Origin: a virus
Lineage: Duplodnaviria > Caudoviricetes
Strand: one strand, 5' to 3'
IMG/VR virus record: IMGVR_UViG_3300012940_000043
Location: 1-45,352 of that record
DNA length: 45,352 bases
The position numbers and the translations under genes are program-made. Of the stretch, positions 671 through 45,121 are shown one piece after another. The first letter of the stretch is position 1. Every line of letters starts with the position of its first letter. Under the pieces are notes generated by a model. That model had not been told where the DNA came from. It searched no databases and worked only from the letters and a program-made list of their open reading frames with translations.

Positions 671-880
671 GTGAGGCAAATGAAACCGTCCGACCTCCGC
701 ATCAGATGGGACCCGACGTGGCCGGGGCCTAACAGGTGGCACGTCGAGCGCCGCATCGGCATCTTCCCGTTCTGGGGGATGTGGGCCTACGAGAGCGGGC
801 ACCCGACCGAAGATGCCGCCCGCTGGGAGCTGAAGCGGATACTGCAGCCTTCGATCCTCATTCCTGGAGAAGCCGTCTGA
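671..880 (+). CDS. Hypothetical protein (69 aa, Trp-rich)
   Basis: GGAGAG RBS before GTG671. The stop overlaps the probable RNAP start (CTGA). Confidence 0.65.
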   Translation: MRQMKPSDLRIRWDPTWPGPNRWHVERRIGIFPFWGMWAYESGHPTEDAARWELKRILQPSILIPGEAV

Positions 881-3324
881 CCACAAACATCCGCGACAAG
901 ATACGCCAGCAACTGGAGCTGGAGGACGAGGCCCGCGCCCTCGGCGCTGACCGCTACCGCGCCCGCCGGCCCCTGCCGTGGCGCACCGAGGCGGCCGGTC
1001 AGGACGAGGAGGCCGAGCTGCCCCCGGGCCGTCAGCTCCTGAAGCTGTCGGTCGAGCCGACCGCCGCCGCCATCCGAGAGTTCGTGGACCGGATCAAGGC
1101 GGGCGGGGCGGGCAGGAGACCGCTCGCCCTGAAGCTCCTCGACCTCGCACCCGCCGAGGAGATCGCCTACCTGACCGGCCGGGTCGTCGTGAACTCGGCC
1201 GCCCACCGCCTGACCGCCCAACAGACGGCGTTCGCCATCGCCGCCGCCGTCACCGACCACGCCGAGATGCGTAACCTGAAGGAGGCCAACAAGGCCGGCT
1301 TCCAGGGGCTGCTCAAGGAGAACCAGCGCAAGAGCTACAGCTCCAAGCGCCGGGCGGCGGTGCGGGACATCATGGAGAAGGAGGGCGCGAAGGTCGCCCT
1401 GTCCCAGAACGAGCAGCTCAGCGGTGGCATGAAGGCCATCGAGCTGTTCTGCGAGGCGACCGGCCTGTTCGTCATGGAGCTGGAGCCCAGCCGCCGGGGG
1501 GAGGTCTACGTGATCCGCCCGACCGAGACGGTGCAGGGGTGGCTGGAGAAGCAGCACGCCCGATGCGAAATCCTGGAGCCCATCCACCTCCCCATGGTGG
1601 TCCGGCCCCGCCGCTGGCGGTCCCCCTTCTACGGGGGCTACCTGACCAAGCGGCCGGGCCTGCGCCTCGTGAAGCAGTGGAACCCCGCCTATCACTCCGA
1701 GCTGCGCCACGTCGACATGCCGGCCGTCTACGACGCCGTCAACGCGGTGCAGGACACCCCCTGGAGGATCAACCGCCGGGTCCTCGACGTGATGCGCGAG
1801 GTCTGGGACGGGGGCGGATCGCTCGGCGGCCTGCCCCTTCGGGAGGACGAGCCGCTGCCGGGCAAGCCGGCCGACTTCGAGACCAACGCCGAGGCCGCCA
1901 CGCGGTGGAAGGCGGACGCCGCCGCCACGCACCAGCGCAACGCCCACACCCTGAGCAAGCGACTGGCCGTCAGTCAGCGGCTGTGGATCGCCCAGAAGTT
2001 CGCCGAGGAGGAGGCCATCTACTTCCCCCACGAGCTGGACTTCCGCGGGCGCATCTACCCGATCCCCGTGGGTGGCCCGCACCCCCAGGGGGAAGACAGC
2101 GCGAAGGCCCTGCTGGAGTTCGCTGACGGCAAGCCCCTCGGGGAAGCCGGTGGGTTCTGGCTGGCGGTCCACCTCGCCAACTTGTTTGGGGTGGACAAGG
2201 TCGCCTTCCAGGACCGGCTCGCCTGGGTCTACGAGAACGAGGCCCGCATCCTGGACAGCGCCAGCAACCCCCTCGACGGGGAGCGGTTCTGGACCACGGC
2301 AGACAGCCCCTACTGCGCCCTGGCCGCCTGCATAGAGTGGGCGGGCTACGTGGAGCAGGGGGCGGACTTCGTGTCTCACATCCCGGTCGCCCTCGACGGG
2401 TCCAACTCGGGCCTGCAGCACTTCTCCGCCATGCTCCGTGACCCCACGGGTGCCCGCGCGGTGAACCTGCTGCCGACTGACCGGCCCCAGGACGTCTACA
2501 TGGAGGTGGCCACCAAGGCCCAGGCCCTGGTGGACAGCGACGACAGTCCCCAGGCCCAGCCGTGGAAGGGCGGCAGGGTCACCCGCAAGATCGCGAAGCG
2601 GCCTTGCATGACCTACTGCTACTCGGCCACCCGGTTCGGGATGCAGGGGATGATCCTGCAGACCCTGCGCGAGATCGACAAGGAGAACGCCGAGGCCGGC
2701 AAGCCGCCGCACCTGGGCGGGGCGGACAACTACCAAGCCGCCGTCTGGCTGTCGCACGTCCTGTGGAACGTCATCGGTGAGGTGGTGTCCGCCGCCTCGA
2801 CCGCGATGGAGTGGCTCCGCAACGCCGCCAAGGTGGCGAGCAGCGCGGACCAACCCATCTGGTGGACCACGCCGGACGGCCTGCCGATCCTCCAGGCGTA
2901 CCGCACGGTGGACGCGCGGGCGGTGCGAGTGTTCTACGGCGGCCGGAGGCTGGAACTAGTCGTGGCCGTCGACAATGAGAACATCGACCGGCGGGCACAG
3001 GCCAATGGCATCGCGCCCAACTTCGTCCACTCACTCGACGGTGCCCACCTCCGAGCAGTCGTGAACGAGCTGAAGCGGCGGGGCGTCAGCCACGTCGCCG
3101 TGATCCACGACAGCTTCGGCACCCACGCCGCAGACGCCGACACCCTGTCGCTCGTGCTGCGGTACACGTTCATCGACCAATACACCCCCGACATCCTCGC
3201 TGGGTTCCGGGATGAGCTGACCGACCAACTCCCCCCGGAAGTGGCCCAGGCCATCCCCGAACCGCCCCCTCCGGGGCCGCTCGACCTGAACGCTCTGGCC
3301 CAGGCGGACTACATGTTCGCCTGA
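877..3324 (+). CDS. gp1: T7-like single-subunit DNA-directed RNA polymerase (probable CTG start at 877; ORF open from 736)
   Basis: Motifs DFRGRIY, LDGSNSGLQHF (motif A), RKIAKRPCMTYCYS (motif B), PNFVHSLDG, IHDSFGT (motif C) and C-terminal YMFA. Confidence 0.97.
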   Translation: MTTNIRDKIRQQLELEDEARALGADRYRARRPLPWRTEAAGQDEEAELPPGRQLLKLSVEPTAAAIREFVDRIKAGGAGRRPLALKLLDLAPAEEIAYLTGRVVVNSAAHRLTAQQTAFAIAAAVTDHAEMRNLKEANKAGFQGLLKENQRKSYSSKRRAAVRDIMEKEGAKVALSQNEQLSGGMKAIELFCEATGLFVMELEPSRRGEVYVIRPTETVQGWLEKQHARCEILEPIHLPMVVRPRRWRSPFYGGYLTKRPGLRLVKQWNPAYHSELRHVDMPAVYDAVNAVQDTPWRINRRVLDVMREVWDGGGSLGGLPLREDEPLPGKPADFETNAEAATRWKADAAATHQRNAHTLSKRLAVSQRLWIAQKFAEEEAIYFPHELDFRGRIYPIPVGGPHPQGEDSAKALLEFADGKPLGEAGGFWLAVHLANLFGVDKVAFQDRLAWVYENEARILDSASNPLDGERFWTTADSPYCALAACIEWAGYVEQGADFVSHIPVALDGSNSGLQHFSAMLRDPTGARAVNLLPTDRPQDVYMEVATKAQALVDSDDSPQAQPWKGGRVTRKIAKRPCMTYCYSATRFGMQGMILQTLREIDKENAEAGKPPHLGGADNYQAAVWLSHVLWNVIGEVVSAASTAMEWLRNAAKVASSADQPIWWTTPDGLPILQAYRTVDARAVRVFYGGRRLELVVAVDNENIDRRAQANGIAPNFVHSLDGAHLRAVVNELKRRGVSHVAVIHDSFGTHAADADTLSLVLRYTFIDQYTPDILAGFRDELTDQLPPEVAQAIPEPPPPGPLDLNALAQADYMFA

Positions 3325-36004: not shown

Positions 36005-37747
36005 GTGACCTCCAAAGATATCCTCCAGGGGGACTTCCTCAAGTTCCTCTGGTACGTCTGGACCAACATCCTGGCGCTCCCAGCGCCGGATCGCATCCAG
36101 CTCGACATCGGCCGGTATCTAGCCGGCGGCCCCAGCAAGCGGTTCATCCAGGCGTTCCGGGGGGTCGGTAAGTCCTTCCTGACGTGCGCCTACGTGGTGT
36201 GGCGGCTGTGGAAGGAGCCCAACCTCAAGGTGCTCATCGTCTCCGCGGGCGAGGACCTCGCGGTCGAGAACGCCTCCCTCATCCAGCAGATCATCTACCA
36301 CCCGGCCGGCGACGAGCTGTGGGCCGAGCTGCGCGGCGGTCGCCGCTCCTCGACCCTGGCCTTCGACGTCGGCAACTGCGTCCCCGACAAGAGCCCGAGC
36401 GTGAAGTGCGCCGGCATCACCGGGCAGATCACTGGTTCGCGCTCCGACATCTTGATCTCCGACGACGTCGAGGTCCCGAAGAACTCCGAGACGGAGACCC
36501 AGCGGGACAAGCTCCGCCGCCTGACGGGCGAGTATGGCGACATCGCCAAGCCCGGCTCCGAGATCATCTACCTGGGCACGCCCCAGAGCATGGAGTCCAT
36601 CTACAAGGGTCTCCCCGAGCGCGGCTACGACGTCCGAATCTGGCCCGCCCGTTACCCGCTGGCTTCCCGCCTGGGCAACTACCTGGGCACCCTCGCGCCG
36701 CTCCTGCTCGCCGACATCGAGGCCGACCCGGACCTCTGCAAGGACACCGGCACGGGCACCGGGGGAGCCCCGACCAACCCCGTCCGGTTCAACGAGCTGG
36801 AGCTGATCCGCAAGGAGGCGGAGCGCGGCAAGGCCGGCTTCCTCCTGCAGTACCAGCTCGACACCTCCCTCGCCGACGCCGACCGCTACCCGCTCAAGAC
36901 CCGTGACCTCATCGTGACCGACGTGGACCGGAAGGTGGCCCCGATGCGTCTCGTGTGGGGCAGCGGGCCAGACCAGATCATCAAGGACCCCGCGCTGCCC
37001 AACGTGGGCTTCGATGGGGACCGCCTGTGCCGGCCGGTGTTCACCTCCCCGGAGTTCTCCGAGTTCACCGGCTCGGTCATGCACATCGACCCCTCGGGCC
37101 GCGGCAAGGACCGCACGGCCTACGTGGTCACCAAGTTCCTCAACGGCTACGTGTTCATCCGGCGCTGGGGCGGGTTCCCGGACGGCTACTCCCCGGAGAC
37201 CCTGCAGCGGATCGCCGAGATCGCGGCCGAGGAGGAGGTCAACCTCATCTGCACCGAGGACAACTTCGGGGACGGTATGTTCGCCCGCCTCCTGGAGCCC
37301 GTGGTCGCCCGCCGCCGGCCAACGCCGGTCGAGGGCTACAAGGTCTCGGGGCAGAAGGAGGTCCGTATCCTCAACTACGTACGTCCCACCCTGGAGCAGC
37401 ACCGGCTGGTGCTCGACGCCACGGTGGCCCGCATGGACCTCGCCCAGCCCGACACGGTTCACCGGGGGCTGTATCAGCTCACGCACCTGACGGATGCCCG
37501 TGGGGCGCTGCGTCACGACGACCTCATCGACGTCCTGGCCCAGGCCCTCGCCTACTGGACCCCGTACATGAACGCCGACGCCCTCAAGGCGGAGGAGACG
37601 TGGAAGCGGAAGCAGGAGGAGGAGTTCGAGCGGGAGTTCTTCGCTGGCACCATCATCGGGGCCGGGCTGGGGAAGCCCACCGGCCAACGACGGGCACCGG
37701 GCAGGAACCTGAGGGGGACCCGGAGGGGAACCTGGGGGAGAGCCTGA
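36005..37747 (+). CDS. gp19: Terminase large subunit
   Basis: QAFRGVGKS Walker A, GQITGSRSD...DDVEVP, LGTPQ, IDPSGRGKD nuclease motif, HDD.ID. Confidence 0.96.
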   Translation: MTSKDILQGDFLKFLWYVWTNILALPAPDRIQLDIGRYLAGGPSKRFIQAFRGVGKSFLTCAYVVWRLWKEPNLKVLIVSAGEDLAVENASLIQQIIYHPAGDELWAELRGGRRSSTLAFDVGNCVPDKSPSVKCAGITGQITGSRSDILISDDVEVPKNSETETQRDKLRRLTGEYGDIAKPGSEIIYLGTPQSMESIYKGLPERGYDVRIWPARYPLASRLGNYLGTLAPLLLADIEADPDLCKDTGTGTGGAPTNPVRFNELELIRKEAERGKAGFLLQYQLDTSLADADRYPLKTRDLIVTDVDRKVAPMRLVWGSGPDQIIKDPALPNVGFDGDRLCRPVFTSPEFSEFTGSVMHIDPSGRGKDRTAYVVTKFLNGYVFIRRWGGFPDGYSPETLQRIAEIAAEEEVNLICTEDNFGDGMFARLLEPVVARRRPTPVEGYKVSGQKEVRILNYVRPTLEQHRLVLDATVARMDLAQPDTVHRGLYQLTHLTDARGALRHDDLIDVLAQALAYWTPYMNADALKAEETWKRKQEEEFEREFFAGTIIGAGLGKPTGQRRAPGRNLRGTRRGTWGRA

Positions 37748-37842: not shown

Positions 37843-38592
37843 TAGATAGTGAGGGGAGGCTGGATTTCAAGACCTCCTCCCCTCCTATTCCTCCCAGCCA
37901 AGGGGGTCTTCCTGCCAACGGCAGGCCGGATCGTTTTTGGGTCGGATTTCCGACAGCCCATACCGCGTGACCAAGTTTCCGTAGTCCCCCCAGGCCCCCA
38001 CCTAGCCCCCGGGGGCATACCCTGAGGGCTACCCCTGGGGCCGCGTTGGCATAGGGGCTCGGCACGGCGATTGCCAAGCGATTGGTTTTGTTGAGCTTTG
38101 ATGCCTCTAGGAATGCCAAGGCCGGGCGGGCAGGGCTCCTGAGGAGCACGGCAGGGGCAACCGGCGGGGCTGGCCTTGGACCCTGATGCTCCGGCCCGCG
38201 CCCTTGATGCCCCCTGCTTTTTTCGCCCCAGCCAACCCGGTCCCCTCGTGGTTCTCCTGCCGGGTCTCCTGCCGGGTCTCCGCGCGTCCGCCCTGCGGCT
38301 GGGGAGCCGGGAACATCGGGATGCCCTGCCGCGCCTCCCTGGGGCTCACTGGCGGGCTTCCTGGGGTTGGCCGCTGGGGTAGTAGCCGGACGCCCTGGCG
38401 GGGCTCCCTGGGGCCTCCCTGGGGCTTTGCGGCGGGGGGCACCATGGCCGCGCGTATGTGCGGGCGGGGGCAGGGGGGACCGGGGGAGCCCCTGCATTTT
38501 TTTCCTGAGTCAAAACAGGGAGTTGTGAGATTTCGGTCCATTTTGTGGACTTCTGGCTTTCCTCATTCGATGATCTAGCGCATATGTCGGCT

Positions 38593-38901
38593 TGTCGCTT
38601 CGGCGGCACGGCCACTCCTCCCCGGCCAAGCATAGGGGCTAGCGCCCTGGGGAGGTCACCAACATCGGTTCCTCGGGACCGTGGCGGGGGCGTTAGGTTG
38701 AGCTGGCGTCCCTGGGGCCTTCGGGCCTCGCCGTGAGGCGCTACGGGAGCAACGGGACCTCGGGAGGCGGAGCGGGTACTGCGGCGCGCGGCTTGGTCGG
38801 CGCAGGCGGTTCCCGGGTAACTCCGCCCGGCGGGCTCGACCGCCGCACCCTCCCGAGTGGGGCTAGCCTTGAGAAGGCTTAACGGGGTTGGTGATGGCGT
38901 C
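38593..38901 (+). ncRNA. Unassigned large structured RNA (about 310 nt) ending at the hammerhead 1 cleavage site
   Basis: At least 9 stems, including two UUCG and one GUGA tetraloop, closed by the long-range pair 38656-38663/38887-38894. No credible ORF. Confidence 0.6.
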
Positions 38902-38951
38902 CGCGGCTGATCCGCCGCGCTGATGAGGGCTAGGGAGGCCCGAAACGCCAT
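38894..38951 (+). ncRNA. Hammerhead ribozyme 1 (type III), predicted cleavage after C38901
   Basis: ATGGCGT-C-CGCGGC[TGATCC]GCCGCG-CTGATGA-GGGC[TAGGGAG]GCCC-GAA-ACGCCAT. Confidence 0.93.
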
Positions 38952-39033
38952 GGAACTTCTGTCTGGTCTCGCCGTGATCTTCGGGCTGACCCTCGGCCCG
39001 TTCATCATCGAAACGATTACGGGGCCGCGCTGA
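38950..39033 (+). CDS. Possible 27-aa hydrophobic peptide MELLSGLAVIFGLTLGPFIIETITGPR
   Basis: ATG lies in hammerhead stem III, GGGAGG lies in loop II, and the stop forms a TGATG overlap with the next gene. Confidence 0.5.
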   Translation: MELLSGLAVIFGLTLGPFIIETITGPR

Positions 39034-39565: not shown

Positions 39566-40081
39566 ATGCTGAAGCCCTTTGACACCGGCCTTAACGTGGC
39601 CGTTCTCCAAATCGCCTCCCAACTGTTCCCGACAGGGTACGATGTTGGGCCGGAAGCTCCTGACACCCTGCAGAAACTGACGGCGCACATTTCGGCCACC
39701 GGCCGGATGCTCGTCTGGAACGGCGAGAGCGACGCGACCATCTTCGGAGACCCGGAAGTCAACTGGGCCTTCCGCGCGTGGCATGACTGGGCTCACTGGG
39801 CCGGGCAGTTCCCGTTCGACCTCGCCGGGGAGACCAAGGCGGCCGAGCTTCAGGTGTTCCACCTTGTGAAGCTCTATGGAGCCACTGACCGCGTCGTCGG
39901 CTGGGCCTCCCTGATCCTGGCCGAGGTCATCGGGCAGGCGTTCGCGTTCGACCGCACGGGCGAGTTCCCAAAGGATCAGCGGGCGTTTACCCGCCACGTC
40001 GCGCCGAGCTACCGCCGCCGCGCGCAAGAGCTTGTCGAGTCGTTCGCCGCCGACCTCTCCAAGGCGAAGCTCGCCGCGTAA
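39566..40081 (+). CDS. Early hypothetical protein (171 aa, FRAWHD motif)
   Basis: GGGAG RBS, possible metal-binding NWAFRAWHDWAH...E motif. Confidence 0.8.
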   Translation: MLKPFDTGLNVAVLQIASQLFPTGYDVGPEAPDTLQKLTAHISATGRMLVWNGESDATIFGDPEVNWAFRAWHDWAHWAGQFPFDLAGETKAAELQVFHLVKLYGATDRVVGWASLILAEVIGQAFAFDRTGEFPKDQRAFTRHVAPSYRRRAQELVESFAADLSKAKLAA

Positions 40082-41262: not shown

Positions 41263-41511
41263 ATGAACGGAGCACGGAAGCGGCTGATCCGCCGCCTGCG
41301 CCGGAACTTCGACGCGTTCGACCTCCATGACAGCAACGCCATGGTGGACAAGGACTATCGGCTGGTCCTGACCGACCCCGTCTATGGTCCCGCGGTCAAC
41401 CCCGCCCTGACCAAGGCGGAAGCCCGCTCGCTCTACGTCCGGTCTGCCCGCCTGCCGGACGGCGGGCTCCGGCCCGCACCCCCTGAGTTAGCCCAGCGTT
41501 TAGCCGCCTGA
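41263..41511 (+). CDS. Early hypothetical protein (82 aa)
   Basis: GAGAG RBS. Its TGA stop lies inside the hammerhead 4 core. Confidence 0.65.
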   Translation: MNGARKRLIRRLRRNFDAFDLHDSNAMVDKDYRLVLTDPVYGPAVNPALTKAEARSLYVRSARLPDGGLRPAPPELAQRLAA

Positions 41512-41558
41512 CGAGCCGGTGAGACCCCGGCGAAACCGCCCGCCTGGGCGGTCGCGGC
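41503..41558 (+). ncRNA. Hammerhead ribozyme 4 (type I), predicted cleavage after C41553
   Basis: GCCGC-CTGACGA-GCCGG[TGAGACC]CCGGC-GAA-ACCGCCC[GCCT]GGGCGGT-C-GCGGC. Confidence 0.92.
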
Positions 41559-44011: not shown

Positions 44012-45121
44012 ATGAACCTCCGCCGGAAGCCAAACGGCGTCTGGCTGGTGGACTACGAGGACCCCGAGACCGGGGCTCGCCGACGTGTGTCCACCGGCCT
44101 GACCGACAAGAGCGAGGCCATGAAGAAGGCCCGCGACATCATCCTCGGGCTGGACACCAAGTCCGCCAAGCCGCGCGCGCCGGGCGCAGGCCCCGCCGGG
44201 AAGTCCTCGGGCTTCACGATGGCCGACCTGTTCCGCAAGTGCGAGCTGACCGTCTGGTCGCCCCGGGAGTGCAAGTCCCAGGCGACCGTGCGGTCCAACC
44301 TGAAGTACCTCTCCGCCAAGCTCGGCGACGAGCTGGTGACGGACATGACGTACTCCAGGCTGGAGAAGCTGGCCGAGGACATGTTCGCCGAGGGACTGGC
44401 GGCCGGCACCGTGAAGCGCAAGCTCGACATGGTGTCCAAGGCCCTGACCATGGCGACCAAGTGGACGGACGAGGCCGGCCGGCCCTACCTCATGGGCAAG
44501 CCCGCCTTCCCCCAGATCACGGCCCGCAACCAGCGCGACCGGGTCCTGGAGCCGAAGGAGGAGGCGGCAGTGTTCGTCGCCATCGCCGAGCGGCGGCTGA
44601 AGGAGCCGACGCGCGACTGGCGGCGTTTCGGCATCCTGATCCGGTGGCTGCTCGACACGGGCTGCCGCCTGGGCGAGGCGCTGAACGTCCGCGACACGTT
44701 CCTGGAGGAGGAGGGTACGGGCAACGAGCGGACCACGTTCGTCACCTTCCCCCGCTACACGACCAAGAACGACAAGCCCCGGAGGCTGCCCCTGACCTCG
44801 GCCATCGAGGCGGAGCTGCAGTACCTGAAGATGGCGGCCATCGACGGCCGGCTGTTCCCGCTGAAGCCGGCGACCGTCTGGTACATGTGGGACAACATCC
44901 GCGGCGACCTGAAAGCGAAGGGCTACGACCTCTCCGACGTCGTGCTCCACACCATGCGGCACACCTGCGGGACCCGGCTGGCGAAGAGCCTGCCCATCCA
45001 CAAGGTCTCCCTGTGGCTCGGGCACAGCTCCGTCCAGGTCACCATGGACCACTACATGCACCTCCAGAGCACCGACTTCCTGGACGCGAAGGGCGTCCTC
45101 GAAGCTCATCCTCTGAGTTAG
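44012..45121 (+). CDS. int: Tyrosine integrase
   Basis: Catalytic set TGCRLGE (R), TKND (K), HTMRH (H-x-x-R), LGH, HYMH (Y). N-terminal arm-binding-like domain. Confidence 0.96.
   Translation: MNLRRKPNGVWLVDYEDPETGARRRVSTGLTDKSEAMKKARDIILGLDTKSAKPRAPGAGPAGKSSGFTMADLFRKCELTVWSPRECKSQATVRSNLKYLSAKLGDELVTDMTYSRLEKLAEDMFAEGLAAGTVKRKLDMVSKALTMATKWTDEAGRPYLMGKPAFPQITARNQRDRVLEPKEEAAVFVAIAERRLKEPTRDWRRFGILIRWLLDTGCRLGEALNVRDTFLEEEGTGNERTTFVTFPRYTTKNDKPRRLPLTSAIEAELQYLKMAAIDGRLFPLKPATVWYMWDNIRGDLKAKGYDLSDVVLHTMRHTCGTRLAKSLPIHKVSLWLGHSSVQVTMDHYMHLQSTDFLDAKGVLEAHPLS

Follow-up and report, generated by a model that had tools for sequence, protein, structure and literature searches.

The first 63 bases of the early transcript of a temperate T7-like prophage are predicted to hold a conserved RNA pseudoknot, the conserved part of which lies at 38608-38655. 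By analogy with known systems, we give a probability of about 45% to the reading that this module is a cis-acting, put- or nut-like anti-termination RNA for the host polymerase, and that the structured, lineage-specific segment behind it would be cut off by a ribozyme. The motif, about 50 nt long within a variable leader, is real and apparently undescribed; the literature searched yielded no description of it, and the supplementary motif lists of comparative RNA screens or subscription papers could hold one.

The early unit and its leader

The window (the whole stretch analysed, 45,352 nucleotides) represents an S2B-like Autographiviridae prophage with an integrase and T7-like gene order. A tRNA lies at 32-118, the RNA polymerase gene (736-3324) is followed by replication and virion genes, the terminase gene (36005-37747) has small early genes downstream, and the integrase gene (44012-45121) is the last of an early unit of about 6.5 kb. 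Copies of a 14-bp att core are found at 110 and 45230. Among cultured phages, 'Mycobacterium phage jiawei' comes closest by terminase (66%), then Caulobacter phage S2B (64%); both have the gene order of the window. The named host records of the clade are Caulobacter, Brevundimonas, Sphingomonas and Novosphingobium. One record labelled as a Mycobacterium phage (L162, OR464703.1) has a terminase that groups with Caulobacter-type phages and carries an alphaproteobacterial rRNA boxA-like sequence, so its host label may be wrong.

A Pfam search of nine early ORFs gave a single, weak match, to a winged-helix family. In the 82-residue product of the early ORF at 41263-41511, 32 residues match a phage protein kinase family (E 1e-5) that is annotated as a regulator of RNase III. 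The motif CTGAGYWAGCSCAG occurs in five copies (3328, 39494, 40085, 41483 and 45113), three of them within the early unit, and looks like a phage RNA polymerase promoter. Between the terminase and the early promoter, a CCTGC(T/A)TTTTT site (38213 and 38491 in the window) is conserved and often duplicated in about 30 clade loci; it is possibly a pause or termination site linked to genome-end processing.

The interval 38593-38901, which lies after the end of the terminase gene and ahead of the early genes, is predicted to be the 309-nt non-coding 5' leader of the early transcript, with the following features.

38558..38586, + strand: putative early promoter of the host sigma70 type (TTTCCT, 17-nt spacer, CATATG) with a degenerate -35
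38593..38608, + strand: 5'-terminal hairpin with a UUCG loop and inferred transcript start; pair probabilities 0.6-1.0
38610..38627, + strand: predicted stem P1, GGCC (38610-13) with GGCC (38624-27), 4 bp
38617..38655, + strand: predicted stem P2, CCTCCCC (38617-23) with GGGGAGG (38649-55), 7 bp, covarying in relatives
38628..38648, + strand: predicted loop L3, conserved AAGCATA (38628-34), then a small inserted hairpin (38636-47)
38656..38894, + strand: lineage-specific GC-rich structured segment; folding z -2.05, 2 of 100 shuffles as good
38894..38951, + strand: type III hammerhead, predicted cut after 38901; stems of 6, 6 and 5 pairs

For comparison, we collected 160 loci through terminase searches (the best 80 of 425 and the best 80 of 132). 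From these, two phage records and one pattern match we delimited 35 leaders by eye, the window's included, leaving out duplicates, clade loci in which no promoter was found and loci cut short. Fifteen leaders, the window's among them, end at a scanned hammerhead cut; the ends of the other 20 are approximate. In most of the 35, a hairpin forms the beginning of the leader, as 38593..38608 does in the window, and a TTGxxx hexamer lies about 35 nt upstream of that start. The spacing from promoter to leader start in the window equals that of these TTGxxx promoters; a consensus promoter scanner made no call at 38558..38586, and by consensus the window promoter is weak.

The initial annotation had taken this region as a non-coding, plus-strand RNA that opens the early unit, has a hammerhead as its boundary and could be assigned to no known family, and these points are supported. 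Relatives combine, at this position, a promoter with a structured leader and a processing site. Two GTG-started ORFs (63 and 49 aa) with no evident ribosome site overlap the leader on the + strand, and the - strand has one ORF of 220 aa. Against Rfam 15, the best E-value for 38570-38910 was 1.9, with nothing at the gathering threshold (riboswitches, antitoxin RNAs and RAGATH included), and the leaders of 13 related loci matched no family. When 50,697 phage records were searched by blastn with the window leader, only short chance matches came up; two related leaders as queries gave zero or one short match. Two sequencing runs that were examined (X2 and X3) give no coverage of the leader.

The first hammerhead has the CUGAnGA and GAAA core elements, an NUH site and three stems in a script scan, which placed type III cuts at 38901, 39314 and 40126 and found no such core on the - strand. 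Rfam lists the second hammerhead only, below its gathering score, and relatives have hammerheads at the same position as the first. A fourth, type I hammerhead was recognised by eye at 41503-41558 (core CTGACGA at 41508, predicted cut after 41553). Within the first (38933-38952), stem-loop II contains the ribosome-site-like sequence GGGAGG and the 3' strand of stem III contains the ATG of the next ORF (38950, 27 aa). Several relatives share this arrangement (L021, L025, L081, L161 and L162), so translation of the first cistron may be controlled through the folding and cutting of the ribozyme. Seven loci without a first hammerhead (L005, L006, L007, L011, L013, L019 and L033) have instead, as the leader end, a long and irregular hairpin that begins with GCCGGTTC and may be an RNase III site; ribozyme and nuclease processing may be interchangeable.

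The predicted 5' pseudoknot and the fold of the leader

The motif GCCAAGCA, with H-type pseudoknot geometry, is present in 11 of the 35 leaders, four of which are from close relatives. AAGCA lies at +36 to +58 in these leaders and is preceded by a near-invariant GGC; the bases that vary between GGC and GCC pair with bases 3' of AAGCATA. The 10-mer of the motif occurs nine times in 905 kb of clade sequence (both strands counted), always in a leader and always on the + strand. In the window, the predicted fold has the interleaved stems, short L1 (3 nt) and L2 of 0-1 nt (here 0) of an H-type pseudoknot, and its L3 consists of AAGCATAG plus the small hairpin; L048 and the variant L003 likewise have a hairpin inserted in L3. 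This pseudoknot was missing from the stems listed in the initial annotation, whose second helix has a GG/CT extension that clashes with P1.

Stem P2 covaries among relatives, as judged from pairing statistics. With the other 102 distinct matches from the metagenome pattern scan as the null set, P2 has at least 6 Watson-Crick pairs in 6/11 motif leaders and in 6/102 chance matches (p 1e-4), and its duplex reaches -11.7 kcal/mol or lower in 10/11 when set against the same 102 (p 3e-7), G+C not being matched in this comparison. P2 pairing averages 5.5 for own and 4.1 for cross combinations. Against shuffles of the same composition, the pairing of 8/11 leaders was reached by at most 27 of 500, and that of L011, L169 and L017 was not significant; L017 has no local P2. 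The register table, with registers chosen by hand for 10 of the 11 leaders and L017 omitted, serves as illustration rather than as a test. For P1, a predicted stem, the covariation support is weak: its GGC/GCC core is almost invariant, the fourth pair is flipped in L081, one pair is broken by a mismatch in L044, and in the Caulobacter group its strands have a competing partner. A motif-blind scan for H-type pseudoknots ranked the P1/P2 fold best in 8/11 motif leaders and recovered the same P1 in L081.

The motif is found on both main branches of the terminase tree, clustering no better than shuffled labels (105/500). In comparisons of the window with other leaders, matches are confined to nucleotides 11-46 (E 2e-5 to L006; profile E 5e-5). 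A single conserved 310-nt family is not supported: only 38603-38638 match other phages, and the leader of the nearest terminase relative is unrelated. One further member (L472), from 98 distinct pattern matches, has a promoter, a new 6-pair P2, a profile E-value of 2e-5 and a hammerhead-like core; its locus is 2.4 kb, with no terminase within. The metagenome pattern scan (52 of 64 parts) gave at least 120 loci, and among the matches listed the only real ones were L271, which is identical to the window and not independent, and L217, from the same contig as L004. The last viral pattern scan covered 42/64 parts. A scan by terminase alignment (8/64 parts) gave no new leader, viral scans with an early protein and with the integrase gave no match, and one with the RNA polymerase gave one contig already in the set. 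In two family samples of host genomes the pattern matched 32/301 and 56/401; among 60 host loci examined, the two best P2 duplexes belong to known prophages, and the module was not seen as a recurring conserved host element in these 301 and 401 genomes. Possible pseudoknot variants with no exact AAGCATA loop (L003, L019, L028, L084, L013 and L053) were excluded from the member count.

The whole leader had been drawn as one multi-branched RNA of about 310 nt. Ten of the listed helices were located by script, TCACCAAC, GGCGGAG and CGGCGG among them, and the CGCC/GGCG hairpin (38729-38740) is also present. The complementary strands exist, but listed helices overlap twice (at 38766-67, CTCGGGAGG and GGCGGAG; at 38729, GGCCTC and CGCC), and a single 310-nt fold is not established. 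In the unconstrained minimum (-175.0 kcal/mol) the 5' hairpin is kept, as are three hairpins within 38687-38740 and both the GGCGGAG stem and the CGGCGG stem, but the closing helix is not; forcing the drawn architecture gave -159.8, 15 kcal/mol above. When pair span was limited to 250 nt (-163.3 kcal/mol), most listed helices returned, the closing helix with a probability of 0.94 and the CGGTTC hairpin with 0.0, and on this modelling the drawn fold is plausible during transcription. The closing helix (38656-63/38887-94) surrounds the 3' 240 nt only, leaving the pseudoknot outside; its last base doubles as the first base of hammerhead stem III.

Shuffling supports the folding energy modestly and in a boundary-dependent way (z -1.5 to -2.7). 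For 38580-38910 z was -1.52, with 10/100 shuffles as good; for 38593-38901 it was -2.68 on the + strand (0/100) and -0.73 on the - strand, and 4/30 other 310-nt windows of the same phage had z of -2.7 or lower. In the 3' segment three hairpins (38687-38740) are well predicted and the overall fold is uncertain. Its 240-250 nt matched none of 571 loci apart from the identical L271, and no independent homolog was found. Most likely, these 240 nt form a variable structured segment that shields the untranslated leader from Rho and nucleases.

A host-like boxA in sister leaders

The leaders follow sigma70-type promoters and range from 62 to about 400 nt across the 35 loci; their length and content differ even among close relatives. 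L001, the sister of the window in a quick terminase tree, shares one 10-mer only with the window leader. Five sister leaders (L005, L025, L030, S2B and jiawei; three once near-copies are collapsed) contain TCTTTGACA, a putative boxA that is identical or near-identical to that of host rRNA operons. It stands at +39 to +43, directly after a hairpin, in four of them and at +86 in one. The sister-phage 16-mer had four matches in five host genomes and zero control matches; one match is the prophage leader, and the other three are upstream of 16S or 23S rRNA, at a distance of 190-229 nt. We call TCTTTGACA boxA because these host matches lie where rrn nut-like sites lie, in which, according to the available text of PMC8632103, boxB precedes boxA.

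The S2B leader is 64 nt long and consists of hairpin, hairpin, boxA and hammerhead, and boxA-only leaders measure 62-64 nt; a Caulobacter segnis prophage (L082) has a leader of the pseudoknot type. Motif and boxA never occur in the same leader, an exclusion that is not significant with near-copies collapsed (p 0.35), and 19/35 leaders have neither. No boxA-like 10-mer within 2 mismatches is present in the window leader, the nearest being at 39576 and 43759. Other leaders share further, undescribed modules (L013, L017, L019, L044, L047, L048 and L053; L003 and L022; L049 and L052), for example a CAGACGAGACTG hairpin and hairpins with a CACAAG loop; no Rfam match was obtained in the scanned loci, and the L049 leader folds with z -5.8.

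Proposed mode of action and known systems

As some sister phages carry a host anti-termination signal at this place, the 5' module likely aids read-through of the early genes by host RNA polymerase. In the mechanism we propose, a host sigma70-type promoter would start the early transcript near 38593; the module (38593-38655) would bind the polymerase or a Nus factor and modify the polymerase in cis, making it processive over the 6.5-kb early unit; the hammerhead would then remove the 309-nt leader and expose the first cistron. By analogy, the downstream cut would be tolerable, since HK022 put stays active untethered. Several points speak against anti-termination: the fold is unlike put, P1 is short and near-invariant, and the window promoter is weak. 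Moreover, terminator-like sites are not enriched in the early unit (two on the + strand, one of them upstream of the leader, and four on both strands, with 3.0 expected), so that a need for anti-termination there is without support. Among the three roles offered in the initial annotation, comparison favours the antiterminator, for the 5' module alone, over decoy or sponge.

The whole ribozyme-released leader might act in trans, as a stable small RNA that is a decoy or sponge for a host defence protein or an RNA-binding protein; the pseudoknot would then serve for binding or for stability. We consider this unlikely. The ends of such an RNA would be defined, and pairing of the 5' with the 3' end is predicted for four Caulobacter-type leaders, with a compensatory change in 11 of 49 predicted pairs; sphingomonad-type leaders have further modules in common, and many leaders far exceed the length of the boxA-only type. 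Phages are also known to carry pseudoknot RNA mimics of type III antitoxins, but the window leader matches no Rfam antitoxin or CRISPR-repeat family, its 3' 240 nt have no independent homolog, the closing helix excludes the pseudoknot and is absent from the global minimum, and the two host family samples did not show the motif as a conserved host element.

We also doubt that the leader is a passive structured 5' end which blocks exonucleases or Rho loading and lets the hammerhead fold without binding polymerase. The free variation in length and content between close relatives suits such a role, as do the modest folding z values of the 35 leaders (mean -1.94 on the + and -1.30 on the - strand) and the hammerhead processing of prophage transcripts described in the available part of PMC3088659. 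Yet an unpaired AAGCATA that persists on both terminase branches points to specific recognition or to tertiary contacts, and at the same position sister phages have a known factor-binding signal. That the stems arose by chance in a sequence of 72% G+C, or that the region encodes a small protein, is very improbable: other windows fold equally well (4/30) and short ORFs exist on both strands, whereas the restriction of the motif to plus-strand leaders and the covarying P2 leave such an account applicable to the 3' 240 nt only.

A bolder form of the anti-termination reading, tentative and rather doubtful at present, is that in alphaproteobacterial temperate T7-like phages the pseudoknot is a protein-free antiterminator, evolutionarily interchangeable with the host rRNA boxA, and that the leader is a swappable structured-RNA cassette released by the hammerhead as the first product of infection. 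If true, alphaproteobacterial polymerase would have a pseudoknot antiterminator whose fold is new in this role and which could serve as a compact tool in Caulobacter and related bacteria. S2B (boxA type) and L082 (pseudoknot type) offer swappable modules and an easily testable comparison, and the clade holds several undescribed structured leader RNAs.

The T7 early leader, from promoters A1-A3 to the first RNase III site, is likewise a non-coding piece removed from the 5' end of the early transcript that host polymerase makes; it is cut by RNase III, whereas the window leader would be cut by a ribozyme and has a conserved pseudoknot. RAGATH motifs are structured RNAs near ribozymes. As described in the accessible part of PMC5737381, RAGATH, GOLLD and ROOL are structured RNAs with no known function that lie close to ribozymes or within prophages, and no Rfam 15 match to them was found in the window leader or in the leaders of 13 related loci. 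Assignment of the window leader to put, to boxA/nut or to an Rfam 15 family was ruled out by fold, absent sequence and lack of a match, respectively. Perreault et al. 2011 (PMC3088659) report several hammerheads flanking short genes in an integrase-bearing prophage, as in the window; the available text says nothing about the RNA that precedes the first ribozyme.

Few RNA-only antiterminators have been described, and the portions of the review literature at hand name put, EAR and RARE. In the available sections of PMC9378689 and PMC8632103, HK022 put is about 65-70 nt long, promoter-proximal, in need of no phage protein, and active far downstream and untethered; its mode is factor-independent read-through via binding of the beta-prime zinc domain. 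Like HK022 putL and putR, the window module is predicted to be a short structured RNA of a temperate phage; its position agrees with that in relatives whose early host-polymerase promoter is clear, the promoter in the window being putative. put consists of two adjacent stem-loops with a stem I triplex, whereas the window has a hairpin and a predicted H-type pseudoknot; the two, from different phage families and host classes, are set apart here by fold and not by sequence comparison. The five sister leaders resemble rrn boxB-boxA in that a hairpin precedes a boxA-like sequence, which lies about as far from the start as AAGCA does in the motif leaders; in the window leader, which lacks boxA, AAGCATA follows the hairpin instead.
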